Program-made: the position numbers and the translations under genes
In this document: positions 1 to 28,325 of the stretch, in pieces
Layout of the letters: every line of letters starts with the position of its first letter
Numbering within the stretch: the stretch's first letter is position 1
Assembly: GCA_038735675.1 (NCBI GenBank)
Contig: JAVYNJ010000006.1
Span: forward strand, 1 to 28,325
Source: Nanopusillaceae archaeon
Lineage (GTDB): Archaea; Nanobdellota; Nanobdellia; Nanobdellales; Nanobdellaceae
Direction: 5' to 3'
Length of the DNA stretch: 28,325 nucleotides
Notes under the pieces: model-generated
Seen by the model: the letters and a program-made list of their open reading frames with translations, nothing else
Database searches by the model: none
Told to the model about the DNA's origin: nothing

Positions 1-904
1 GTCTTTCATTTCTTTCTCTTACTTCTCTAGATAAACTACTATGATGAATTTCTATTGGATAATCTGGTATCCATTTTTTAAATCTAGAAACTAACAATTC
101 TGCCATTTCTCTAGTATTAACAAATATTATTACCGATTTATGTTTATCTAAAATTTCTTTTATTTTTCTTAAACTCCAAATAATTTTTGGACTCCATCCA
201 AATTTTTTGCTTAATTCAACGTCTTCCTCAGTAATCTCTGGATAAAATACTTCTATATCATATTTTTTTATGCCATACCAAAAAGCAATATCAAAATCTC
301 TATAACCAAAAATAAATTTTCCTGCTAATTCCAGATCTCCGATAGTTGCAGATAATGCAATTCTTTGAAATTCTCCAGAAAAATTAACTAATCTCTCTAA
401 ACCTAAAGATAATTGTATTCCTCTTTTATCATCCAACAATTCATGTAATTCATCAATTATTACAAACTTAACCGTTTTTAAATATTCTTTTAGTTTTTTT
501 CCTAAAAATAATGCTTGAAATGTTTCTGGTGTAGTTATTAAAAATTCTGGAGGTTTTTTTGATTGTCTAGATCTTTCAGATTGAGAAGTATCGCCATGCC
601 TTATTGCAATACTTATATCCAAATTACTACACCACCAAATTAATCTATCTAACATATCTCTATTTAAAGCTCTTAAGGGAGTAATGTAAATCGCTAAAAT
701 TCCATTCTTGTTTTCTTTTTCTTTTATATCTAATATTTTTGAAAAAACTGGGATAACTGCAGCTTCTGTTTTTCCAGAACCTGTAGGAGAAACAATTAAC
801 GTATTTTTTCCAGATAAAATTTTTGGTATAGCAATCTTCTGTATTTCATTAAATTCAGAAAATCTTTCCAAAAATAAATTTTTTACTTCTTTTCTTAGAT
901 TCAT
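1..904 (-). CDS. lhr: Lhr-type DExH-box superfamily-2 helicase, N-terminal ~301 aa; the ORF runs off the left edge of the window
   Basis: My own minus-strand translation from the ATG at 904..902 reads MNLRKEVKNLFLERFSEFNEIQKIAIPKILSGKNTLIVSPTGSGKTEAAV... Ordered helicase motifs follow: PTGSGKT (I), TPLRAL (Ia), TTPE (Ib), DELH (II), SAT (III), FVNTR (IV), HHSSLSRE. It is absent from the ORF track because it has no stop in the window. ATGA start/stop overlap with the upstream gene. Confidence 0.85.
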   Translation of the reverse strand, partial: MNLRKEVKNLFLERFSEFNEIQKIAIPKILSGKNTLIVSPTGSGKTEAAVIPVFSKILDIKEKENKNGILAIYITPLRALNRDMLDRLIWWCSNLDISIAIRHGDTSQSERSRQSKKPPEFLITTPETFQALFLGKKLKEYLKTVKFVIIDELHELLDDKRGIQLSLGLERLVNFSGEFQRIALSATIGDLELAGKFIFGYRDFDIAFWYGIKKYDIEVFYPEITEEDVELSKKFGWSPKIIWSLRKIKEILDKHKSVIIFVNTREMAELLVSRFKKWIPDYPIEIHHSSLSREVRERNER

Positions 905-1560
905 ATTTCTTTAATTAAAATTCCTTCTAAAGTAAATATGCTATAATTTTTGATTTTTTTTGCAATTGGCCCATGAAAACTTCCAACTTCCCAATAACCA
1001 GCTAAATCAGAAAATGCGGGTAAGATTATTATTTCCTTGCTATTAAAGTTTCCTATAACAAATACTTTTTCATATATAGACTCTCCTACATATGTCTTTA
1101 AATTATAAACAAAATGATGATGGCCTATTACATACATGTTACAATCAAAATTGCTTTTCATATTTCCATGGGTAAATACAACATTCCCGATCTTTAATTC
1201 TTTTAGCAATTTTACTTTTTCATCCTCTTTTATTATCTTATTTAAACCTCCATCATGATTTCCTCTAAGTATGTAAATTTTATCAAATATTTCTTTTAAT
1301 TTTTCAATAAAATATGGGATTTCTTTCATTTCCAAAACACTAATCTTAGGAACATTATGTTTTAAATCACCAACAATTATAATTGACTTAGTTTTGTATT
1401 TCATATGCAAATCTTCAACTTTTTTTATTAGATAATCCGTAGCTGCAGGTATATTTATACCGGTCCCAAAAAGTTCCCTTTCGATTCCTATATGCAAATC
1501 AGAAATCACTAAATAATTTTTCTTAAAGATTAATGCTTCTTTTCCAGTGAATTGAAACAT
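901..1560 (-). CDS. Calcineurin-like metallophosphoesterase (COG1407/MPE type, the family usually paired with Lhr)
   Basis: 219 aa with the metallophosphoesterase motifs in order: ISDLHIG, GDLKHN, GNHD, GHHH. 4-nt ATGA overlap with the Lhr start and 1-nt overlap (TAATG) with the upstream gene. Confidence 0.85.
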   Translation of the reverse strand: MFQFTGKEALIFKKNYLVISDLHIGIERELFGTGINIPAATDYLIKKVEDLHMKYKTKSIIIVGDLKHNVPKISVLEMKEIPYFIEKLKEIFDKIYILRGNHDGGLNKIIKEDEKVKLLKELKIGNVVFTHGNMKSNFDCNMYVIGHHHFVYNLKTYVGESIYEKVFVIGNFNSKEIIILPAFSDLAGYWEVGSFHGPIAKKIKNYSIFTLEGILIKEI

Positions 1561-5125: not shown

Positions 5126-6617
<1,492 letters not shown>

Positions 6618-6621
6618 AGTT

Positions 6622-6638
6622 AAATCCAGGATAACCTC
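6622..6638 (+). other. 16S processing-stem 3' strand (AAATCCAGGATAACCTC)
   Basis: Reverse complement of 5061..5077. It begins only 5 nt after GGATC of the 16S 3' region. Confidence 0.8.
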
Positions 6639-12624: not shown

Positions 12625-12641
12625 GAGGGTTATATAACCCA
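12625..12641 (-). other. 23S processing-stem strand (3' flank of the 23S on the minus strand)
   Basis: GAGGGTTATATAACCCA (plus-strand reading) is the exact reverse complement of 15588..15604. The core GGGTTATATAACCC is itself palindromic. Confidence 0.75.
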
Positions 12642-15587
12642 CGGGCGATTGGAAGCGGTCGGCTTACTCCTCGGAAACCCTCGGAGCTTCCACCGCCGCC
12701 CCATCAACGGGGTCTTCTACCCCAGCCCTTAATAGCCGCCTATTTTCGGGGAGGGGTTCGCCCTTAGATGCTTTCAGGGCTTACCCCCTATGGCGTAGCT
12801 ACCGGGCTTGCCCTCGTCGGACAGCCCGTCCACCAGTGGCCACGGCCCGCCGTTCCTTTCGTACTAGGCGGACCTTCCCCTCAGGCGGCTAGCACCCCCG
12901 ACAGTTAGAGACCGAACTGCCTCGCGGCGTTCTGAACCCATCTCACGACCCCTTTTAATGGGTGAGCACCCCCACCCTTGGCGGCTTCTGCACCACCAGG
13001 ATAGGGGGAGACGACGTCGAGGTCACGAACCGCGGGGTCGATGTGGGCTCTCGCCCGCGACTGTGCTGTTACCCCCGGAGTAGCTTTTCCGCCAGCCCAT
13101 ACCCCCACCAATGGGAGTATGGGGTTCGCTAGGCCCGGGTTTCCCCCCTGCGCCCCTTGATGGTCGGGGCGCAGTCAGGCCGGCTTTTGGCCTTGTCCTC
13201 CACAGCGGAGTTCTGACCCGCTTGAGCCGACCTTTTGGACCCCGCCGATATCTTTTCGGCGGGGTGCCGCCCCAGCCAAACCGCCCACCTGCCGCTGTCC
13301 TCTTCCGAGTTAGTTCCAAAGGGTCCAGAGGCGGGTGTTTCATGGACGCATCCCTTCAACCTAGCGGCTGAAGTTCATCGCTCCCCGCTACGCTACACAC
13401 TGGACCCTTTGGAACAACGGCAGGCTGCGGTTAAGCTTCACGGGGTCTTTTCTACCCATCGGGGGTCCCTGGCCTTCTCACCAGGACGGCAGGTTCAGGG
13501 GGTCCCGGCCAGGGACAGTGGCGGGCTCGTTACACCGTTCGCAAAGCCGGCATTTAACCGGCAAGGCATTACGCTACCTTAAGAGGGTCAGAGTTACCCC
13601 CGCCGTTTACCGGCCCTTAGCCCCCTTGAACGGGGGGTTCAGGTACCGGCACTGGGCAGGTGTCGCCCCCGGTAAAAACCCTTTCGGGCTATCCGGGAGC
13701 TATGTTTTTGATAAACAGTCGGCCCGCCCTAGTCACTGCGACCTGCGGTAGCAGGATTAGCCCACTACCGCAGGCACCCCTTCTCCCTAAGTTACGGGGC
13801 TAATTTGCCGAGTTCCCTTGACCGGGTTACCCCCACGGCCTTAGGCTTTTCACCCAGGGGACCAGTATCGGTGTGCGGTACGGTCGCCCAGGATCGTTCC
13901 TCTTTCCCTTTTCATAGCCACCAGGCCTCGGCGGAAATTCAGGGTTTGAGCCGGTTCTCACCATTACGGTACTCCCCGGCCCTATCCCCTTTAACGGAAG
14001 TAAGTGGAATTTAATCCACCCCTCCGTCCGCCTAGCCCAATGGGTCGGGAAAGAGGCTTGCGTTACCGCACCTACCTGGGCGGTAGGGGAATATTAACCC
14101 CTTTCCCTTTCCCCATATCCCTCTCGGGATATGGGTTAGGACCGACTAACCCCCAGTTGAACTTCATTGCTGGGGAAACCTTTCCCCTTTCGGCCGACGG
14201 GATTCTCACCCGTCTGATTCCTACTACCGCGGGGATCTTCATTCCGAACGGCTCCAGAGCCCCTTTCGGAGCTCCTTCTGAGCCATCCGGACGCCCGCCT
14301 ACCTCACGCGGATCAAAGATCCGCGGACCTGGGTCTCGGCAGCCGGCTTAGACCCGTCCGTTTTCGGGGCCTATCCCCTCGCCGGGTGAGCTGTTACGCA
14401 CTCCTTAGATGATGGCTGCTTCTAAGCCTACATCCCCGGTGTCTTAGGGGATAGACACCCTTGATTTTCACTTAGCCGGCATTTAGGGGCCTTAACCCAG
14501 GTCTCGGTTGTTCCCGTCTCGGATACGCGGCTTTCCCGCGCACCCCGTCTCCCGGGATCTACGGATCTACCAGCTTCGGAGTTGGACTCCGTAGGGATAA
14601 CCCCTACGGAATCCGTAGCTCTACACCGGTAGAATCCTCCCCCGAGGCTTGACTTCAATCAATTTCGGCGGGGACCGGCTATCACCGGGCCCGATTGGCT
14701 TTTCACCCCTACTCCGAGGTTATGGGAGGGATTTTTCCCATCCCTTCGGGCCTCCACGGGGGTTTCCCCCCGCTTCGCCCTACCTCGGAGTAGATCGCCC
14801 GGTTTCCGGTCGTATCCGAGTGACTAACCGCTCTTTCGAACGGGTCCCCTCGCGGAAAAGATTCCGCTGCGGGATCTCGGTTTCCCTACGGCTTCGGGGA
14901 TAAACCCCTTAACCTCGCCACTCGGATACACTCCCCCGCACGTTCTTCCAAACGTACGGCAAAACGGGATAACCTCGCGGTTGTACTCATTCGTCGCCGA
15001 AATTTTCCAACCGCAAGGCCTAACCCGCTTTGCCTGACTGTCCCCGCCCGGTTTCAGATTCTTTTCACACCCTGCCACGGGTTCTTTTCACCGTTCGGTC
15101 GCCCTACTATACGCTATCGGACTCGGGTAGTATTTAGCCTTGGGGGTTGGTTACCCCCAACTTCCTGACGGAAATTCAACCGCCAGTACTCCGGAAGTAG
15201 AGATATTCCGCTGTAAAGGCCCCTACGGGACTGTCACCCTCTTCGGTTCCGGACTTCCACCGGAATTCGAAGCCTTTACAGCGGAATAGCCTCTACCCCA
15301 TAACACCACATCTCCTCTGAGTTACCCCAGAGGATTAGGTTTAGGCTTCTCCCCTTTCGGTCGCCCCTACTAGGGGAATCACGTTTTGTTTTCTTTTCCT
15401 GCGGGTACTGAGATGTTTCACTTCCCCGCGTTCCCCTCCCTTACGGGATGTTCGGGTTTTTCACCCGAACAGGAGTTCCCATTCGGGAATCTGCGGATCA
15501 ATGGTTGCGTGCACCTCCCCGCAGCATTTGGTCGCTTGCCACCCCCTTCTTCGGCTCCCGAGCCCAGGCATCCACCGGGCGGGTTGC
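12642..15587 (-). rRNA. 23S (LSU) rRNA, about 2.95 kb, no intron-sized insertion
   Basis: The minus strand begins ..CCGCCCGGTGGATGCCTGGGCTCGGGAGCCGAAGAAGGGGG, the typical archaeal 23S 5' region. A continuous GC-rich block without credible ORFs runs between the two processing-stem strands. Confidence 0.95.
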
Positions 15588-15604
15588 TGGGTTATATAAC
15601 CCTC
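15588..15604 (-). other. 23S processing-stem strand (5' flank of the 23S on the minus strand)
   Basis: TGGGTTATATAACCCTC is the reverse complement of 12625..12641. Confidence 0.75.
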
Positions 15605-15720: not shown

Positions 15721-17397
15721 ATGGTTGAATTGGAAAAAAAAGAAAATTTTTCCGAATGGTATAATCAAATAATTAGAGAAGCCGAAATAATTGATGATAG
15801 ATTTCCTGTAAAAGGAATGCCTGCATATCCAAATTATGGATTTTCTTTGATAAAAAATATTTTTTCAATTTTAGAAAAATTATTAGACAAAGAAGAATAC
15901 AAGCCTATATGGCTACCAATATTAATTCCAAAAGAAATATTTCAAAAAGAAGAAGAACATATTATTGGATTTGGAGGCGAAGTATTTTACGTTAAACCTG
16001 GAAATCCCTTAGAAGAAGAAAAAGAGATTTACTATATACTTCGACCAACTTCTGAAACAGAATTATACTACATGTTTTCTTTATGGATCAACTCATATAA
16101 AGATCTGCCTTTTTTAACCTACATGAGCAATTCGGTCTATAGATATGAAACAAAAGCAACAAAACCCTTAATAAGAGGAAGAGAGATTCTATGGATAGAA
16201 TCACATACAGCTCACAAAGATATTGATGATGCTAATAAAAATATTAAAAAATCCATGGAAATATATTCTAATCTATTTTGGGATATCTTGTCAATTCCCC
16301 ATATATGGATTGTTAGACCAGATTGGGACAAATTTGCTGGAGCTCAAAAAACTTTTGCTGCAGATACTTTATTACCTGATGGAAGATTTTTACAAATAGG
16401 AACTACACACATGTTAGGCCAAAATTTTTCAAAAGCATTCAATATTAAATTTCAAGATAAGCATCCTTACATCAAAATAGATGATAATACTTTTGAAGCC
16501 AAAAGCAAAAATGGGGAATATAAATTTATTATAAAGGTTCTAGATAATAATATTGAGATAAGATTTTATGAAAATGAAATTGAAAAAGCAAAAATTTTGG
16601 ATAAAATAGAATTTTCTGGAGATATATCTGAAGATAATGAGAATTTAATTAGAAATATCGATGAAATTTTAAGAAAACATTTTCCAAAAGAGTTTTTAGA
16701 TCTTGATAATACTAAATTTGTATGGCAAACTTGTTTTGGTTTATCTATGAGAATATTAGCGGCTATAGTAGGAATTCACGGAGATGATAGTGGATTAATT
16801 TTGCCTTTTGAAATAGCTCCCATACAAATAGTATTAATTCCCATATATTATTCTGAAACTGAAAAACAAAAAATTTTAGATTATTGTAAAAAAATAGAAA
16901 ACATTTTATCTGAAAAATATAGAATAAAAATTGATGATAGAGACGATAAGACTCCTGGATGGAAATTCAATTATTGGGAAATGAAGGGAGTTCCTATTAG
17001 AATAGAAATAGGCTTAAGAGAATTTGAAAATGAAATTGTAACGATATGCGATAGAATAACTAAAAAAAGAAAATCTATTTCTCTAAACGAAATAGAAAAA
17101 TATCTTTCTGAACTTATAAAAGAACTTGATTTAAAATTAAAAGAAAATAGCAAAAAATTCTTTGAAAGCAGCATTATAAAAATCAAATCTATAGAAGAAC
17201 TAAAGGATATTATAGATAAAAGAAAAGCAGCTAAAGTGCCTTTTTGTTTAAGCGAAGAATGTGGTAAGTACTTAAAAAATAATTTAAATGTTGATGTTCG
17301 TGGCTATGATATTATTCCAGAAATTGCTGAAGATGAAGAGTGTATTGTTTGTAAAAATAAAGCAAAATATTGGTGTTACATTGGAAAAAGTTATTAG
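15721..17397 (+). CDS. proS: Prolyl-tRNA synthetase, archaeal/eukaryote-like type, with an ~84-aa insertion in the catalytic domain
   Basis: 558 aa. NFSEWYNQIIREAEIID, RPTSET, class II motif regions, WQTCFGLSMR, HGDDSGLILP, a C-terminal Cys-rich domain and a terminal Tyr. Confidence 0.9.
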   Translation: MVELEKKENFSEWYNQIIREAEIIDDRFPVKGMPAYPNYGFSLIKNIFSILEKLLDKEEYKPIWLPILIPKEIFQKEEEHIIGFGGEVFYVKPGNPLEEEKEIYYILRPTSETELYYMFSLWINSYKDLPFLTYMSNSVYRYETKATKPLIRGREILWIESHTAHKDIDDANKNIKKSMEIYSNLFWDILSIPHIWIVRPDWDKFAGAQKTFAADTLLPDGRFLQIGTTHMLGQNFSKAFNIKFQDKHPYIKIDDNTFEAKSKNGEYKFIIKVLDNNIEIRFYENEIEKAKILDKIEFSGDISEDNENLIRNIDEILRKHFPKEFLDLDNTKFVWQTCFGLSMRILAAIVGIHGDDSGLILPFEIAPIQIVLIPIYYSETEKQKILDYCKKIENILSEKYRIKIDDRDDKTPGWKFNYWEMKGVPIRIEIGLREFENEIVTICDRITKKRKSISLNEIEKYLSELIKELDLKLKENSKKFFESSIIKIKSIEELKDIIDKRKAAKVPFCLSEECGKYLKNNLNVDVRGYDIIPEIAEDEECIVCKNKAKYWCYIGKSY

Positions 17398-17629
17398 GTG
17401 GCCGTAAGCCGCTTTTAGTATATATTTTTCTAATCGGCAAACCTTTTACCGGCGGGTCTTCCTTCTCAAGATACCGGAAAGCTCTCCAAGGTTATCTTAG
17501 GTTACCCCAAGATATTTCCTTTTCATTTTCATTTGCTTTCCGGCTCGCTATTTCTTGAGAAGTTGCCGGGGATTTCTCCCCCCGACTTGCGTCGGCGCCC
17601 TACGGTAAGCGGACTTTCCAACGGCCACC
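17397..17629 (-). ncRNA. rnpB: RNase P RNA candidate, unusually small (233 nt)
   Basis: Minus strand: 5' GGTGGCCG TT GGAAAGTCCGC ... ACTAAAAGCGGCTTA CGGCCACC 3'. This gives a CR-I-like GGAAAGUCC, a CR-V-like ACnnAAnnCGGCUUA, a P4 pairing with a bulged U, and an 8-bp terminal helix. It is a GC-rich island, with a TATA-like element about 28 nt upstream and a T5 run 8-12 nt downstream. Confidence 0.7.
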
Positions 17630-17650
17630 TATATTTATAAGCTTCTACTT

Positions 17651-17662
17651 AAAATATAAAAA
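17651..17662 (-). promoter_or_regulatory. TATA-like element (TTTTTATATTTT on the minus strand) for the RNase P RNA candidate
   Basis: Centred about 28 nt upstream of the first G of the RNA (17629). Confidence 0.4.
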
Positions 17663-17663
17663 T

Positions 17664-17831
17664 ATGACCACAAAAAAGATAGAAACATTACCTGTTAGAA
17701 GTTTTGCTGGAATATTTAAATTTGGAAAAGAAAAATCTAAAATAGTAATAGATAAAAAAACATTTATTGCTCTAGCAATAATATTGGCTGCTTTAGTTCT
17801 AGCTGCACACATAATATTCAAATATATTTAA
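17664..17831 (+). CDS. Sec61-beta/Sec-beta-like preprotein translocase subunit (55 aa, tail-anchored)
   Basis: Small ORF below the track cutoff: MTTKKIETLPVRSFAGIFKFGKEKSKIVIDKKTFIALAIILAALVLAAHIIFKYI. The (S/F)AG(L/I)xx(Y/F) motif followed by a single C-terminal TM matches archaeal Sec-beta. Confidence 0.6.
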   Translation: MTTKKIETLPVRSFAGIFKFGKEKSKIVIDKKTFIALAIILAALVLAAHIIFKYI

Positions 17832-17840
17832 TAAGAACTC

Positions 17841-18272
17841 ATGAATTCTAAAGAAATTCTTTCAGAAGTTTTACATATTTATAATGTATCTCTAAAAAAT
17901 AATAAAGGATTAGAAACAGTAAAACAACTAATAAAGACATTATGCAGCTTTTATGATTCTTTAATAACAGAATATTTGCAATATTTAAAAAATAAAGGAA
18001 AAATAAAGGAAATTCCTGAAGTACCAATGAAGAGGTTAGAAATATTTGAAGAAAACTTTACTAATGAAGAAGTAAAGCCTATATTAGAAAATTATAAAAT
18101 TTTAAGATTTTGTATAAACTCAGAAATTATGATAAAAGATGAATATAGAAGATCTATGATCATTATATGCAAATCCCTCGATAAAGTTGTAGAAATAAAT
18201 CAAAAGTCGCTAAAAGATTTTGTAGAAATGGCCAAAAAATTTTTACAAATAGTTGAAAAGCAAATTGGCTGA
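17841..18272 (+). CDS. Hypothetical all-helical protein, 143 aa, overlapping the downstream MinD/ParA-like gene
   Basis: ORF with native codon bias and no recognisable motif. It overlaps the next gene by 20 nt. Confidence 0.4.
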   Translation: MNSKEILSEVLHIYNVSLKNNKGLETVKQLIKTLCSFYDSLITEYLQYLKNKGKIKEIPEVPMKRLEIFEENFTNEEVKPILENYKILRFCINSEIMIKDEYRRSMIIICKSLDKVVEINQKSLKDFVEMAKKFLQIVEKQIG

Positions 18273-19020
18273 AGTTTTTTCTATAATATCGGGTAAAGGA
18301 GGAGTAGGAAAAACTTTTATTTCAATAAATTTAGCTTATGCTCTCAACAATTTTAATAAAAAAGTTCTTTTAATAGACTCTAATATAACAACTCCAAATG
18401 TAAGCATTGTTTTAAGAGTTGACAGAAGAGGAAAAACGATTCATGATTTTTTAAAATCAAAAATAGAACTAGAGGATGCTATATTTAAAACAAAATATGG
18501 GTTCGATCTAATACCGGGAAGTTTACAAATAGAAGATTTAGTAGATGTAGATTTAGATAGACTATATTTTCTATATAAAGTCAGAGAGAAATACGATTAC
18601 ATAATACTAGATTCTTCAGCCGGTTTAGGTAGAGAAGCTTATTCTTCCATTAAAGCTGCTGATGAAACCATATTGGTTACAACTCCTGAAAAAGCAGCTT
18701 TAATGGATGCTTTAAGAGCGATAAAAATATGTAAAACTCTGGGAACTAAAATAAAAGGAATAATATTAAATAGATATACTGAAAATGTAGATTTATATAA
18801 AATAGAAACTTTACTAGAAGAAAAATTAATAGGTACCGTCAGAGAAGATGAAAATGTTCAATATAGTATGAATATTGGTATTCCTTTAATAGAAATAGAC
18901 CCAAATTCTCCAGCTTCTTTAGATATCCTAAATATATCAAAGAGAATTTTAGGAATAAAAGAAGAAATTAAAGAAGAAGGATTCTTAACAAAAATATTTA
19001 ACATATTTAAATGGAGATAG
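18253..19020 (+). CDS. MinD/ParA-family P-loop ATPase
   Basis: Deviant Walker A SGKGGVGKT, LLIDSN, Walker B IILDSSAG. The start is uncertain: TTG at 18253 or in-frame TTG at 18265. Confidence 0.85.
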   Translation: MKSKLAEVFSIISGKGGVGKTFISINLAYALNNFNKKVLLIDSNITTPNVSIVLRVDRRGKTIHDFLKSKIELEDAIFKTKYGFDLIPGSLQIEDLVDVDLDRLYFLYKVREKYDYIILDSSAGLGREAYSSIKAADETILVTTPEKAALMDALRAIKICKTLGTKIKGIILNRYTENVDLYKIETLLEEKLIGTVREDENVQYSMNIGIPLIEIDPNSPASLDILNISKRILGIKEEIKEEGFLTKIFNIFKWR

Positions 19021-19274
19021 ATTTAGAAATAAATAGAATTTTAGATATAATAAAAGAAAAAAAGCCAAAAAAGATTTTACTACAATTTCCAGATGGCTTA
19101 AAACCTAGATCAAAAATAATATATGATCTAATAAAAGAAAACTTTCCAAATACAGAAGTTTACATATGGTTGGGGGAAACTTTTGGAGGTTGTGATGTTC
19201 CTATATGGCTAGAAAAATATGGATTTGATCTAATAATAAATATAGGCCATTCGAAAGTTACGATAGAAAGATGA
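19011..19274 (+). CDS. dph2: Diphthamide synthase Dph2 N-terminal fragment (87 aa; truncated gene, split gene or pseudogene)
   Basis: ILLQFPDGLKPRS..GETFGGCDVP..DLIINIGHS aligns by eye with the first ~85 residues of archaeal Dph2 (~330-340 aa). The ORF then stops, and downstream DNA encodes an unrelated membrane peptide. Confidence 0.6.
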   Translation: MEIDLEINRILDIIKEKKPKKILLQFPDGLKPRSKIIYDLIKENFPNTEVYIWLGETFGGCDVPIWLEKYGFDLIINIGHSKVTIER

Positions 19275-23244: not shown

Positions 23245-23317
23245 GGCCCGGGCCGGGATTTGAACCCGGGACCTTCGGGTCCACAGCCCGACGCCCTGCC
23301 GCTGGGCTACCCGGGCC
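23245..23317 (-). tRNA. tRNA-His (GUG) with genome-encoded G-1 opposite C73; CCA not encoded
   Basis: Minus strand G-GCCCGGG-TA-GCCC-AGCGGCA-GGGC-G-TCGGG-CTGTGGA-CCCGA-AGGTC-CCGGG-TTCAAAT-CCCGG-CCCGGGC-C folds into a full cloverleaf with anticodon GTG. Confidence 0.9.
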
Positions 23318-23318
23318 A

Positions 23319-24581
23319 TTATGAATTTATTATTTCAATTATTTTATTAATTTCATTTATATCTATATCATATTTTTTCTTTTCAAGTCTATCTTGCAAA
23401 ATTAATTTTTTCTCCTCTATTTCTTTTCTTCCAACAATAATAATGTATCTAATATTTTTTGATACAACATATTCAATTTGATTTTTAAATTTTTTTCTAG
23501 AAACATCTAAATAAACTCTTAATCCGAGATCTCTCAATTTTCTAGCTAATTTTAATGCTTCCACATATAAATTCTGATCTAAATATATTATAGCTAAATC
23601 TAAAATAGTTTTATTATTTAAATCAAAAATTTTATTTTCTATTCCTAAATCCAATAATCTGTTTATTCCTATAGATCCGCCAACAGCAGGAACCTTAGAT
23701 TTTGAGAATAATTCTATCAAATTATCATATCTTCCACCCCCGGCCAAACTTATTTGAAAATTTTTCAAAACAATTTCAAATATCATTCCAGTATAGTAAT
23801 CCAAACCTCTAACCAGAGCAGGATTATAAATTACTTTTTTAGAATTTGAAAGATCTATTATATTATACAAAAGATTTAATCTATCACTTATTTCTTCTCT
23901 TTTTATTTTTGATATCTCATCTATAGCTTCTTGGCCTTTTAAGCCTATGATGCTCACAATTTTTTCTATTGTTTTACTATCAAATTTTTTTGAAAGTTCT
24001 TTAATTACACCATCCAATCCGATTTTATCTAGCTTATCTATTATAGTATAAACATCTTTAAAAGAGATTCCAAAATATTTAAATATATTTTCAATTAAAA
24101 TACGGTCATTTAAATATATATAAAAATCTTTGAATCCTAATTTTTCAAAGATTTTATCAAAAAGCTCTATTATTTCTGCATCTGCCTCTGGATATGGAGA
24201 GCCAATTATATCTGCATCGGCTTGCCAAAATTCTCTATATCTTCCTTTTTGAGGTTCATCATATCTAAACACTCTGTCTATTACATATCTCTTAAAAGGT
24301 AGAGAGGGGCGATATTTTGCATAAAATCTCGCTAAAGGAACTGTATTGTCGTACTTTAATGCATATTCCCTATCAGAAAAGGATAATTTAAATTTCCATA
24401 TTAATTTGTTTTCCGCCTCTTCTCCGTATTTTCCTTTTAAAATATCCCAATATTCAATTATAGGAGTTAATATTGGCTCAAAACCGTATTTTTGAAACTC
24501 CTCTTCAATTACTGAAACAATTTTTTTTCTAAGGATCTCATATTCTACGTTAAAATCCTTCATACCTTTTGGAGGATCCAA
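23319..24581 (-). CDS. hisS: Histidyl-tRNA synthetase
   Basis: 420 aa. PKGMKDF N-terminal motif, class II motifs (FRYDEPQKGRYREFWQ, GGGRYD) and a C-terminal anticodon-binding domain. Apparent TTG start. Confidence 0.9.
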   Translation of the reverse strand: MDPPKGMKDFNVEYEILRKKIVSVIEEEFQKYGFEPILTPIIEYWDILKGKYGEEAENKLIWKFKLSFSDREYALKYDNTVPLARFYAKYRPSLPFKRYVIDRVFRYDEPQKGRYREFWQADADIIGSPYPEADAEIIELFDKIFEKLGFKDFYIYLNDRILIENIFKYFGISFKDVYTIIDKLDKIGLDGVIKELSKKFDSKTIEKIVSIIGLKGQEAIDEISKIKREEISDRLNLLYNIIDLSNSKKVIYNPALVRGLDYYTGMIFEIVLKNFQISLAGGGRYDNLIELFSKSKVPAVGGSIGINRLLDLGIENKIFDLNNKTILDLAIIYLDQNLYVEALKLARKLRDLGLRVYLDVSRKKFKNQIEYVVSKNIRYIIIVGRKEIEEKKLILQDRLEKKKYDIDINEINKIIEIINS

Positions 24582-26001: not shown

Positions 26002-26297
26002 TGCTAATTTCTACGAATTATACACATAAGCAAAATTAAAAAAATATGGACTTATATAACAAGAGAAAAACAATAAATGATCAACTGGAAGATTTTTAAA
26101 AGAATAGACTTAAAAACCCATGAGAATGTCGTAAAATTTATAAAAAAATTAGAAGCCAATAATTATTTTAAAGAAAAAATAGAAAATATATTTACATACT
26201 AAAACTTTAAAAAACTTTTAGGAAAAGATCTTTCTAAAGTAACAAAGTATAATTGCTTTTGTATAACTTTTTATTTTTTTATCTTAATTTTGAGTAT

Positions 26298-28325
26298 ATG
26301 GAAAAAAATAATGACTCTGAAATTAGATTCTATGAAATGTTGAGAGATGCTTTCATTGGTGCGAAAATAAAGGAAATGGGGGGAGAATCTGGTTATATAA
26401 ATCTAATGAAAATAAAATCAAAATATTTTTTTGATGTAATATTTCCTAAATTAAAAGAAGAGATTGAAGAGAAAACTAAGGAATTTCCCGAATTCAAAAA
26501 TGAGATTTATAATAAACTTTATAGTTTTTTCAAAAGATATTTTAGTGAAAGTGGTTCTATATATTTTGTTAGTACTCCATTTTCAGAAAGAATTTATGAA
26601 AGAGTTTATACAGACAGTGAAGATGTAATTTTATTCTGGAAAACTCATATGCTATATTATGTTAAAACTGACAGAGTTTTTAAAGACATGGAAATAAAAT
26701 TAGAAGAATTAGATGGTATTAAATTCTTTTTTGATACATCAAAACTAGAACATAAAAAAGCATGGGAAAAAAGAGATATCGTTTTTGAGCTTAAGGATGT
26801 AAAAAAAGATGTAAAAGACAATAACATTATTATCTCATTTTATGTTTTTTATTCCGAAAGGGGAATAAAAACAAATATAGAAAACATAATAAAAGAGCTA
26901 AAGACTAAAGGAATTAAAATAAATGAAGAAATTCTGGAAAAAGCATTTAAAATTTTTGAAAAACAAAGCGAAGTTGATTATTTTATAAATAAGAATGCTA
27001 GACAATTCTTAAAAGAACAATTTGATTTATGGCTTTATCAATATATTTATTCAGATGAAACGGATTTTTCTGAAAGAAGAATAAAGCAATTAAAAATATT
27101 GAAAGAAATTGCTTATAAAATAATTGATTTTATTTCTCAATTTGAAGAAGAACTAGTAAAAATCTGGAATAAACCAAAATTTATTCTTAATTCTAACTAT
27201 GTTATAACTTTAGATAGAATAGCAAAGAAAGGAGAAAAGGGAATTAAACTAATAGAGAAAATAATTAATCATTCCGGCTTTGAAGAGCAAGTTAAGGAAT
27301 GGAAAGAACTGGGAATAATAGAAAATTTTGATAAAAATAAGCTTTTTATAAGAACTCTTAATGGAAAAGATTTAAACAAAGAATATCAGTTTTTACCAAT
27401 AGACACGAAATATTTTGATGAAGAAATTAAATATGAACTACTTTCTTTGTTTGACAACTTGGATCAAGAATTAGATGGCTGGCTTATAAAAAGTGAAAAT
27501 TATCAAGCATTAATTACTATTTTACCAAAATTCAAAGAAAAAGTACAAACAATATATATAGATCCTCCATTTAATAAAGAACAGGATGCTGATTATTTCT
27601 ATTCTGTGAAATTTAAAGATGCAACATGGGCAACAATGCTTGAGAATAGATTAAGACTTGCCAGAGAATTCTTAAAAGATACAGGAAGTATTTTTGTTAG
27701 ATGTGATTATAATGGAAATTGGATTGTTAGAGCTATAATGAATGAGATTTTTGGAAAAGAGAACTTTAGGAATGAGATAGTAGTTAAAAGAGGATCCCCT
27801 AAAGCAGGACTATTTGAACAGTTTGAGAAGCTGAAATCAATCGGAGTAACGTATGATAATCTTTATTTATTTTCGAAAAACCCTGAAGCAAGATGGGGAG
27901 GCTTTACTAAAGTTTTGGGAGAAAAAAGAAGAGGTTATTGGACGAGCTTTAAAAAAATATATGATAGACCTACTATGCGATATGAAATAGAAGGTATTAC
28001 ATTGGAAAAGGGGCAATGGATGTGGAATAAAGAGAGAGCTTATAAAGCAGTTGAAAATTATAAAAAGTATTTAGAAATTAGTAAAAAAACAGGAGAAACA
28101 CTGGAAGAATACTGGGAAAGAACGGGTAGAGTCTTAGAGTTTGTAAGAAGACATAATGATACAATTCAATATTGGGTGCCCCCTAAAGAAAACATTTTAC
28201 TTGATAATAATTGGCTTGATATTCCAGGTTATTCTTCTGGATGGGGGTTCAAAACCGAAAACTCCGAGATCCTTCTTAAACGTATCATAGAATCTACATC
28301 TAACGAAGGTGATTCAATCATGGAT
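26298..28325 (+). CDS. Type III Mod-like (beta-class N6A/N4C) DNA methyltransferase with a ~410-aa N-terminal extension; the ORF runs off the right edge
   Basis: I translated 676 codons by hand with no stop: MEKNNDSEIRFYEMLRDAF... Motif IV is IYIDPPFN (DPPF at 27561..27572), followed by W..ML..RL.LAREFLKDTGSIFV, IMNEIFGKENF and FKTENSEILLKRIIESTSNEGDSIMD, the segment that precedes the FxGSG motif I in beta-class enzymes. It is absent from the ORF track because it has no stop in the window. Confidence 0.8.
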   Translation, partial: MEKNNDSEIRFYEMLRDAFIGAKIKEMGGESGYINLMKIKSKYFFDVIFPKLKEEIEEKTKEFPEFKNEIYNKLYSFFKRYFSESGSIYFVSTPFSERIYERVYTDSEDVILFWKTHMLYYVKTDRVFKDMEIKLEELDGIKFFFDTSKLEHKKAWEKRDIVFELKDVKKDVKDNNIIISFYVFYSERGIKTNIENIIKELKTKGIKINEEILEKAFKIFEKQSEVDYFINKNARQFLKEQFDLWLYQYIYSDETDFSERRIKQLKILKEIAYKIIDFISQFEEELVKIWNKPKFILNSNYVITLDRIAKKGEKGIKLIEKIINHSGFEEQVKEWKELGIIENFDKNKLFIRTLNGKDLNKEYQFLPIDTKYFDEEIKYELLSLFDNLDQELDGWLIKSENYQALITILPKFKEKVQTIYIDPPFNKEQDADYFYSVKFKDATWATMLENRLRLAREFLKDTGSIFVRCDYNGNWIVRAIMNEIFGKENFRNEIVVKRGSPKAGLFEQFEKLKSIGVTYDNLYLFSKNPEARWGGFTKVLGEKRRGYWTSFKKIYDRPTMRYEIEGITLEKGQWMWNKERAYKAVENYKKYLEISKKTGETLEEYWERTGRVLEFVRRHNDTIQYWVPPKENILLDNNWLDIPGYSSGWGFKTENSEILLKRIIESTSNEGDSIMD

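Follow-up and report, generated by a model that had tools for sequence, protein, structure and literature searches.

A gene for a reduced RNase P RNA (RPR) was found in a stretch of 28,325 nucleotides (nt) from a hot-spring Nanopusillaceae archaeon (GenBank assembly GCA_038735675.1, contig JAVYNJ010000006.1, positions 1 to 28,325, forward strand), referred to here as the window. We put the probability at roughly 93% that the minus-strand segment at 17396–17630 is the gene for the RNase P RNA subunit of this organism, and that it falls in the reduced architectural class already described for its family. The parts missing from this RNA belong to the periphery of the catalytic domain (helices P2 and P3, and P15–P17 with P6). 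The specificity domain is complete and type-A-like, and comprises P7, P8, P9, P10, P11, the loops of conserved regions (CR) II and III, and a P12 with an extension that resembles a kink-turn (K-turn). The variant is not novel: the reduced form appeared in print in 2013, 2016, and 2026, and what we present is a rediscovery. As the point has already been published, all that the window contributes is a new, divergent sequence, which shares about 70% identity with that of Candidatus Nanobsidianus stetteri Nst1 (hereafter Nst1), and additional support from covariation.

An earlier note on this stretch, made from its letters alone, had proposed a miniaturized RNase P RNA of 233 nt in a GC-rich island between proS and a Sec61beta-like open reading frame (ORF). 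The ends, the island, and the length all agree with the minus-strand sequence. From 17630/17629 downward, the 5' end reads (A)GGTGGCCG-TT-GGAAAGTCCGC, and the 3' end, at 17397/17396, reads ACTAAAAGCGGCTTA-CGGCCACC(T); in RNA letters, these are 5' (A)GGUGGCCG-UU-GGAAAGUCCGC and 3' ACUAAAAGCGGCUUA-CGGCCACC(U). The RNA is 233 nt long, or 235 nt when an extra closing A-U pair is counted, and its last two nucleotides overlap the TAG stop codon (17395–17397, plus strand) of the gene for prolyl-tRNA synthetase (ProRS; 15721–17397, plus strand), which was identified with Pfam. The neighbor on the other side, an ORF of 55 amino acids (aa) at 17664–17831 on the plus strand, is weakly Sec61beta-like (Pfam E = 0.0077; NCBIfam PRK01253 E = 4.9e-6, under its cut-off). 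The GC fraction at 17400–17599 is 0.475, against 0.21–0.31 in the flanks, and the RNA as a whole is 48.9% GC, compared to 25.4% for the window minus its structural RNAs. Its minimum free energy (MFE) is −99.2 kcal/mol, with a fold z-score of −7.13 relative to 200 shuffles.

A permissive Rfam scan of 17300–17750 matched the minus strand to RF00373, the archaeal RNase P RNA model of Rfam clan CL00002, with 81.9 bits and E = 3.1e-23 over model positions 1–288, the full length of the model; RF00373, not the type-T family, was the best Rfam match. CR-I, P5, P7, P8, P9, P10, P11, CR-II, P12, CR-III, CR-IV, CR-V, and P1 all aligned to it. The gaps comprised 25 columns for the 5' strand of P2 and the whole of P3, and 6 columns for the 3' strand of P2, so that the alignment deletes exactly the two helices that the earlier note had held to be absent. 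In addition, the model's 41-nt insert for P15–P17 has shrunk to 4 nt. The gene and its elements, from the 5' to the 3' end of the RNA, are as follows (RNA position n is window coordinate 17631−n):

17396–17630, minus strand: the RNase P RNA gene (RPR), recognized by the RF00373 match, 31 homologs, and covariation
17622–17630, minus strand: 5' strand of P1 (RNA 1–9, AGGUGGCCG), pairing with 17396–17404
17607–17619, minus strand: CR-I and 5' strand of P4 (RNA 12–24, GGAAAGUCCGCUU), only 2 nt after P1, with U18 bulged
17451–17607, minus strand: P5 (24–27/181–184) and P7 (32–35/177–180), enclosing the specificity domain and supported by covariation
17582–17595, minus strand: P8 hairpin (CCGAC-GCAA-GUCGG), with an A-U to G-C change at columns 41–48
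17568–17581, minus strand: P9 hairpin (GGGGA-GAAA-UCCCC) with a GNRA loop, double-sided changes in 3 of 5 pairs
17544–17558, minus strand: CR-II (J11/12; RNA 73–87), AGAAAU invariant
17474–17543, minus strand: P12, a 9-bp base helix (88–96/149–157), an internal loop, a 4-bp helix, and a distal 8-bp hairpin
17462–17473, minus strand: CR-III (J12/13; RNA 158–169), UUGAGAA invariant, 8 of 12 positions invariant
17433–17443, minus strand: vestigial P15 (RNA 188–198), a 2–3-bp stem with a 4–6-nt loop; L15, P16, P17, and P6 absent
17420–17433, minus strand: CR-IV-like joining region (RNA 198–211, UUAGAAAAAUAUAU), 10 of 14 positions invariant
17405–17419, minus strand: CR-V and 3' strand of P4 (RNA 212–226, ACUAAAAGCGGCUUA), directly abutting P1, 12 of 15 positions invariant
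17396–17404, minus strand: 3' strand of P1 (RNA 227–235, CGGCCACCU)

Homologs of this RNA, the existence of which the earlier note had left open, are already known (Podar et al. 2013, PMC3655853; PNAS 2026, PMC12974513). We assembled 31 distinct sequences, each 231–235 nt long and most of them in the same syntenic position. Their sources are Ca. Nanopusillus acidilobi 7A, Nanobdella aerobiophila MJ1, Ca. Nanobsidianus stetteri (Nst1 and a second isolate), strain YN1, several metagenome-assembled genomes (MAGs), and 20 hot-spring metagenome contigs; further copies were retrieved by two pattern scans built on conserved blocks, which are specific to the Nanopusillaceae-type RNA. The RNA of the window shares 89% identity with its nearest relative and 65–73% with the others, and it can be aligned from end to end with the Nst1 copy (L007/L018). 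When the gap next to ProRS was scored with RF00373 in the loci of three relatives, it reached 85.5, 81.8, and 70.9 bits, the highest of these, from strain YN1, being above the gathering threshold. The P2 and P3 columns of the model were deleted in these three orthologs as well, and the spacing of 2 nt between P1 and CR-I is common to all 31 aligned sequences.

The genomic context is shared too. Among 11 relatives for which the DNA around ProRS was compared, 7 (eight loci) kept the order ProRS, a gap of ~265 nt, the Sec61beta-like ORF, an ORF of 143–150 aa, and ParA; an N-terminal fragment of Dph2 comes next wherever the retrieved DNA extends that far. The Nst1 locus shares this order, with the RNA in the gap, through to the Dph2 fragment. 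The ProRS synteny was not kept in Nanoclepta and three more distant relatives (L005, L009–L011), and since the pattern scans are family-specific, they do not establish the absence of the RNA from Nanoclepta or Nanoarchaeum equitans. The affiliation of the window with this lineage, which had been proposed from its 16S rRNA, is borne out by ProRS, which has a 100% identical counterpart in a “Nanopusillaceae archaeon” MAG, and by the occurrence of RNase P RNA orthologs in Nanopusillus, Nanobsidianus, and Nanobdella. Public proteins of the source MAG carry the label “Candidatus Aenigmatarchaeota archaeon”, which is probably wrong, since ProRS, gene order, and RNase P RNA all point to Nanopusillaceae.

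Covariation among the 31 sequences supports P1, P4 with its bulged U, P5, and P7–P12. An unguided RNAalifold prediction recovered every helix expected from the Rfam alignment, with double-sided changes in 34 of 68 pairs. In the curated structure, 87.8% of cells were paired and 30 pairs had double-sided changes, compared to 9.6±1.8 in shuffled alignments; none of 500 shuffles reached any of the five measures used. Sliding the 3' partners by 1–3 columns reduced pairing to 31%–51%. Invariant positions were concentrated in CR-I (11 of 15, counted over RNA 10–24, that is, J1/4 and CR-I), CR-III, CR-IV, and CR-V.

P1 spans 9 bp in the window. Its seven inner pairs form in each of the 31 sequences, and one compensation, from G-C to A-U, is seen in Nanobdella. 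P4, formed by CR-I (GGAAAGUCC) and CR-V (ACnnAAnnnGGCUUA) around the bulged U18, as had been predicted, is paired in 98.8% of cells over its eight pairs, 3 of which show compensatory changes, including A-U/G-C at columns 16–228 and U-A/C-G at columns 20–225. As P2 is absent, P4 crosses no helix and no longer forms a pseudoknot; it is now nested within P1, with 4 nt bulged out on the 5' side. In the CR-IV-like region, UUAGAAAAAU aligns to the model segment uAGucGAAU, and the 3' strand of P2 that usually follows is absent. RNAalifold pairs columns 191–193 of the vestigial P15 with 200–202; the register of this stem is ambiguous, because its pairs are either invariant or G-U only.

The family varies at a core pair of P4 that is normally invariant (columns 16/228; window 17615 and 17407). 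The near-universal GGAAAGUC/GGCUUA is retained in just two sequences, those of the window and of its closest relative (L001), whereas the other 29 sequences carry GGAAGGUC. In 28 of these, CR-V reads GGCCUA, a compensated change from A-U to G-C, and in the remaining one (L017), GGAAGGUC is combined with GGCUUA, which gives a G-U pair.

The interior of the RNA had been described in the earlier note as a GCAA-capped hairpin, a GGGG/CCCC hairpin, and one long imperfect hairpin, perhaps the remnant of a specificity domain. The first two correspond to P8 and P9, respectively. The domain as a whole is no remnant, however. P5 and P7 cells are 100% paired, with double-sided changes in all 4 pairs of P7 and in 1 pair of P5. 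P11 consists of 4 bp (69–72/170–173) flanking the CR-II and CR-III loops, and 3 of these pairs are compensated. P12 continues beyond its internal loop into a 4-bp helix (110–113/140–143) and an 8-bp hairpin (118–125/130–137) with a GUAA loop; these distal helices are 99% paired, with double-sided changes in 10 of 12 pairs. The P12 base helix is only 30% paired when counted by alignment columns, a consequence of a shift by one column in the MAFFT placement of the window and L001. In an anchored count per sequence, all 9 pairs are formed in 30 of 31 sequences, and 8 of 9 positions show compensation. The two sides of the internal loop conserve AUGA...AUGA and GGAGAG, respectively, and we presume, by analogy, that it is a K-turn-like site for L7Ae. 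Similarly, L9 may dock on P1, as a P1-P9 contact has been described for the RNase P RNA of Methanocaldococcus jannaschii.

The long imperfect hairpin was not confirmed. Its 10-bp register (CUUCUCAAGA/UCUUGAGAAG) is present in the window and is the one picked by single-sequence MFE folding, but across the 31 sequences, 52% of its cells are paired and there are no compensatory changes. For this reason the register was rejected in favor of P11, the CR-II/III loops, and P12.

The RNA gene is flanked by two candidate expression signals:

17653–17660, minus strand: TTTATATT, the TATA-like box of the RNA gene; counted from the first nucleotide of P1, it spans −30 to −23, and its center is ~27–28 nt upstream of the first G
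17385–17389, minus strand: T5 run inside the ProRS coding sequence, 7–11 nt past the RNA 3' end (8–12 nt past 17397)

On the same scale, a conserved box, TTTATATA, spans −28 to −21 in all other genomes compared. Because this distance is fixed, we infer, as had been suggested for the window, that transcription would start no more than about 2 nt away from the mature 5' end. The T5 run lies where the earlier note had placed it and may be an oligo-T terminator. It is present in most homologs but absent in two loci (L003 and L008), and so is not a universal feature. Between the 5' end of the RNA and the start codon (ATG, 17664) of the Sec61beta-like ORF, which is divergent to it, there are only 33 nt (17631–17663), and this gap holds two TATA-like boxes, both conserved in relatives. 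The second one, TTTATAA at 17634–17640 on the plus strand, lies about 24–30 nt before that ATG, which implies that the Sec61beta-like mRNA would be leaderless.

Several known RNase P RNAs invite comparison. In Nst1, Podar et al. (2013; PMC3655853) described an RNase P RNA of reduced length, which they could not fold; aligned as 31 sequences, the family yields a clear structure derived from type A. The PNAS paper “Coevolution of RNase P and the ribosome” of March 2026 (PMC12974513) described the deletion of P2 and P3 in Nanopusillaceae RNase P RNAs, modeling that of Nanobsidianus stetteri and comparing it with fungal mitochondrial RNAs that lack the same helices. A Nucleic Acids Research (NAR) paper of August 2026 recognizes only types A, M, and T as formal archaeal classes; the form without P2 and P3 is documented, then, but unnamed as a class. 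The Nst1 RNA resembles that of the window in lacking P2 and P3 and keeping P4, in length (234 nt versus 235 nt), and in its position between ProRS and the Sec61beta-like ORF. The RNA of the window differs from it in the sequence of P12 and in its P8, which has 5 bp and a GCAA loop.

With type A (RF00373), the window RNA shares CR-I to CR-V, P1, P4 with the bulged U, P5, P7–P11, and P12 with its K-turn-like extension. It lacks P2, P3, L15, P16, P17, and P6, its P4 is nested, and its length is about 235 nt against the 288 positions of the model. Type M RNAs, like that of the window, are protein-dependent and do without the L15 substrate loop, P16, and P6; they keep P2 and P3, however, and typically lack P8, whereas the window RNA has a covarying P8 and no P2 or P3. 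Type T is likewise a strongly shortened archaeal form in which the loss of RNA elements goes with the loss of one protein partner, and it is the mirror image of the RNA described here: it keeps the catalytic domain (P2 cut to 3 bp, P3, and P15) and loses most of the specificity domain along with Rpp21 (Chan et al. 2012; NAR 2026), whereas the window RNA keeps the specificity domain and loses P2/P3 and, according to the literature on Nst1, Pop5. The RPM1 RNAs of ascomycete mitochondria (Seif et al. 2003), in the account given of them in PMC12974513, also lack P2 and P3 and keep P1 and P4. Unlike the window RNA, they are organellar, derived from bacteria, and far more degenerate, and their protein partner is Rpm2.

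The RNA is probably the catalytic subunit of a ribonucleoprotein that cuts the 5' leaders off pre-tRNAs by the usual metal-ion mechanism. It has retained the universal catalytic core, with the P1/P4/P5 stack, CR-I, CR-IV, CR-V, and the bulged U in P4, together with the entire type-A specificity domain (P7–P11, the CR-II/CR-III loops, and P12); in solved structures, the CR-II/CR-III loops form T-loop anchors for the tRNA elbow. Cryo-electron microscopy of the M. jannaschii enzyme showed Rpp29-Rpp21-L7Ae bound to the ends of P1 and P9, the T-loops, and P12 with its K-turn, Pop5 on the P2/P3 junction, where it holds CR-IV, and Rpp30 touching P2-P3. Judged by that structure, the window RNA appears to keep everything that Rpp29-Rpp21-L7Ae binds, without the platform for Pop5 and Rpp30. 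Rpp21, Rpp29, and L7Ae may accordingly bind the retained P1/P9 ends, T-loops, and K-turn-like P12 loop, whereas the P2-P3 platform of Pop5/Rpp30 is gone from the RNA.

The proteins reported for Nst1 are in line with this picture. Podar et al. (2013; PMC3655853) listed an RNase P RNA and three protein subunits, p21, p29, and p30, and Samanta et al. (2016) did not find Pop5 and noted the smaller RNase P RNA. Taken together, the literature on Nst1 has Rpp21, Rpp29, Rpp30, and L7Ae encoded and Pop5 not detected. Because Pop5 and Rpp30 dock on the P2/P3 platform, the loss of this platform fits the reported lack of Pop5. The architecture of the RNA is observed here directly, and the protein side rests on published negative searches in Nst1. 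We regard it as a tentative proposal, somewhat less probable than its converse, that the RNase P of Nanopusillaceae truly works without Pop5 and the P2-P3 platform; either Rpp30 would then function without the partner it normally has, or the stabilization of CR-IV would fall to an unrecognized, lineage-specific protein. If true, this would be a distinct fourth type of archaeal holoenzyme, the mirror image of type T.

A number of points weigh against the identification of the segment as a working RNase P RNA gene. At the default gathering thresholds, Rfam reported only the 16S and 23S rRNAs and two tRNAs in the window, the RF00373 match going unreported because its score is 2.1 bits under the gathering cut-off of 84. 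No gene for an RNase P protein (Rpp21, Rpp29, Rpp30, Pop5, or L7Ae) was found within the 28-kb window, and transcript or activity data for any member of the family were not found in the literature searched. Activity of the core is not guaranteed either, since P2/P3 and L15 normally aid core stability and the docking of substrate and proteins. Most family members, moreover, have GGAAGGUC rather than GGAAAGUC, although the change is compensated in P4. Lastly, the regions upstream of tRNA-Glu in the window and in one relative (L038) have no TATA box in common that stands at a constant distance, which is ambiguous as to 5' leaders; the survey of such leaders covered the loci of 12 relatives, which yielded just one additional tRNA.

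Three other explanations were weighed. That the segment is no RNA gene at all, but a GC-rich intergenic or coding segment resembling RNase P motifs by chance, could be argued from its score below the default cut-off and from two short overlapping ORFs, of 62 aa (17370–17558, plus strand) and 42 aa (17312–17440, minus strand). Genuine archaeal RNase P RNAs score between 53.6 and 228.6 bits on RF00373, however, and random genomes score at most 14.3 bits (Chan et al. 2012), so that the 81.9 bits of the window fall inside the genuine range. The covariance-model E-value of 3e-23, the fold z-score of −7.1, the ortholog that scores above the gathering threshold, and substitutions that are RNA-like (paired and compensatory) rather than codon-like all speak against a chance resemblance, and the model match, the ortholog scores, and the covariation have effectively refuted it already; it is the least probable of the three. 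A decaying relic, still recognizable but no longer catalytic and heading to the complete loss seen in N. equitans, would account for the missing P2, P3, and P15–17, for the reported lack of Pop5 in Nst1, and for the “partial degradation” of which Podar et al. (PMC3655853) wrote, and the related N. equitans did away with RNase P entirely. A relic would not be expected to hold its length at 231–235 nt over 31 sequences that are just 65–73% identical to the window, however, nor to maintain every helix by compensatory changes, keep CR-I, CR-III, CR-IV, and CR-V near-invariant, and retain a promoter at a fixed distance in all genomes compared; Nst1 also retains three or four RNase P protein genes. 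We consider decay very unlikely on these grounds.

Strong conservation proves that an RNA has a function, not which one, and with the periphery of the catalytic domain and the 3'-CCA-binding L15 lost, a descendant of RNase P RNA could have taken on another main role, for instance as a scaffold or in the processing of non-tRNA substrates. The elements that have stayed invariant are precisely those for the recognition and cleavage of pre-tRNA, however: the T-loop anchors in CR-II/III and the active site in CR-I/IV/V. In addition, G-1 (23317) of tRNA-His (23245–23321, minus strand) is encoded in the genome, and the start of this tRNA lies 1 nt past the TAA stop codon that ends the histidyl-tRNA synthetase gene (hisS) on the same strand. 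This suggests that it is co-transcribed with the gene for its own synthetase, and with such an arrangement, 5' endonucleolytic processing is most simply required. A change of role is rated even lower than decay, and an RNase P RNA that still serves pre-tRNA processing remains by far the best account of the segment.

RNase P is nearly universal, and N. equitans is the classic exception without it. Terrestrial relatives of that archaeon carry an intermediate: a catalytic RNA without P2/P3 and P15–17 in which the tRNA-measuring domain is intact. Such a form reveals what the ribozyme core can do without in vivo, and it points to the joint loss of RNA elements and proteins, P2/P3 with Pop5 in this family and the specificity domain with Rpp21 in type T. 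Two members of the family, N. acidilobi and Nanobdella aerobiophila, are available in co-culture, so that the biochemical questions are directly testable.

Among the neighboring genes, the 143-aa ORF at 17841–18272 (plus strand) always adjoins the RNA locus and is confined to Nanopusillaceae and Nanobdella. It carries an invariant motif of 17 residues, VLHIYNVSLKNNKGLET, and an AF2 model of the protein (pLDDT 90) shows four helices and a small sheet. We considered it as a hidden RNase P subunit, but profile matches were at noise level (NEPRO_N, E = 0.009; adenylate kinase, E = 0.014), and the best Foldseek match in the PDB (E = 0.14) was a weak, HEPN-like helical resemblance; the idea is unsupported. 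Further downstream, an 87-aa ORF at 19011–19274 (plus strand) matches just the first 58 of 302 positions of the Pfam diphthamide-synthase profile and is, for that reason, taken to be the N-terminal fragment of Dph2 mentioned above. The fragment is kept in relatives and agrees with the split Dph2 gene that Podar et al. (PMC3655853) listed for Nst1.

The 16S (5126–6623, plus strand) and 23S (12630–15599, minus strand) rRNA genes of the window are unlinked and on opposite strands. The ~6 kb that lies between the two holds protein genes, among them those for TGT, S19, and type-IV-pilus/archaellum-like ATPase and membrane proteins. The adjacency of 23S and ProRS is kept in relatives. At 59%–63% GC in a genome of ~25% GC, the rRNA fits a thermophile. 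Both contig ends cut large ORFs, at 26253–28325 (plus strand) and 2–910 (minus strand); these are, respectively, a frame that stays open for at least 691 aa, to which no function was assigned, and the N-terminal portion of a DEAD/Lhr-type helicase. Finally, a hairpin of the 16S rRNA at 5308–5350 is extended by an insertion relative to the archaeal small-subunit rRNA consensus, at about model positions 193–200.

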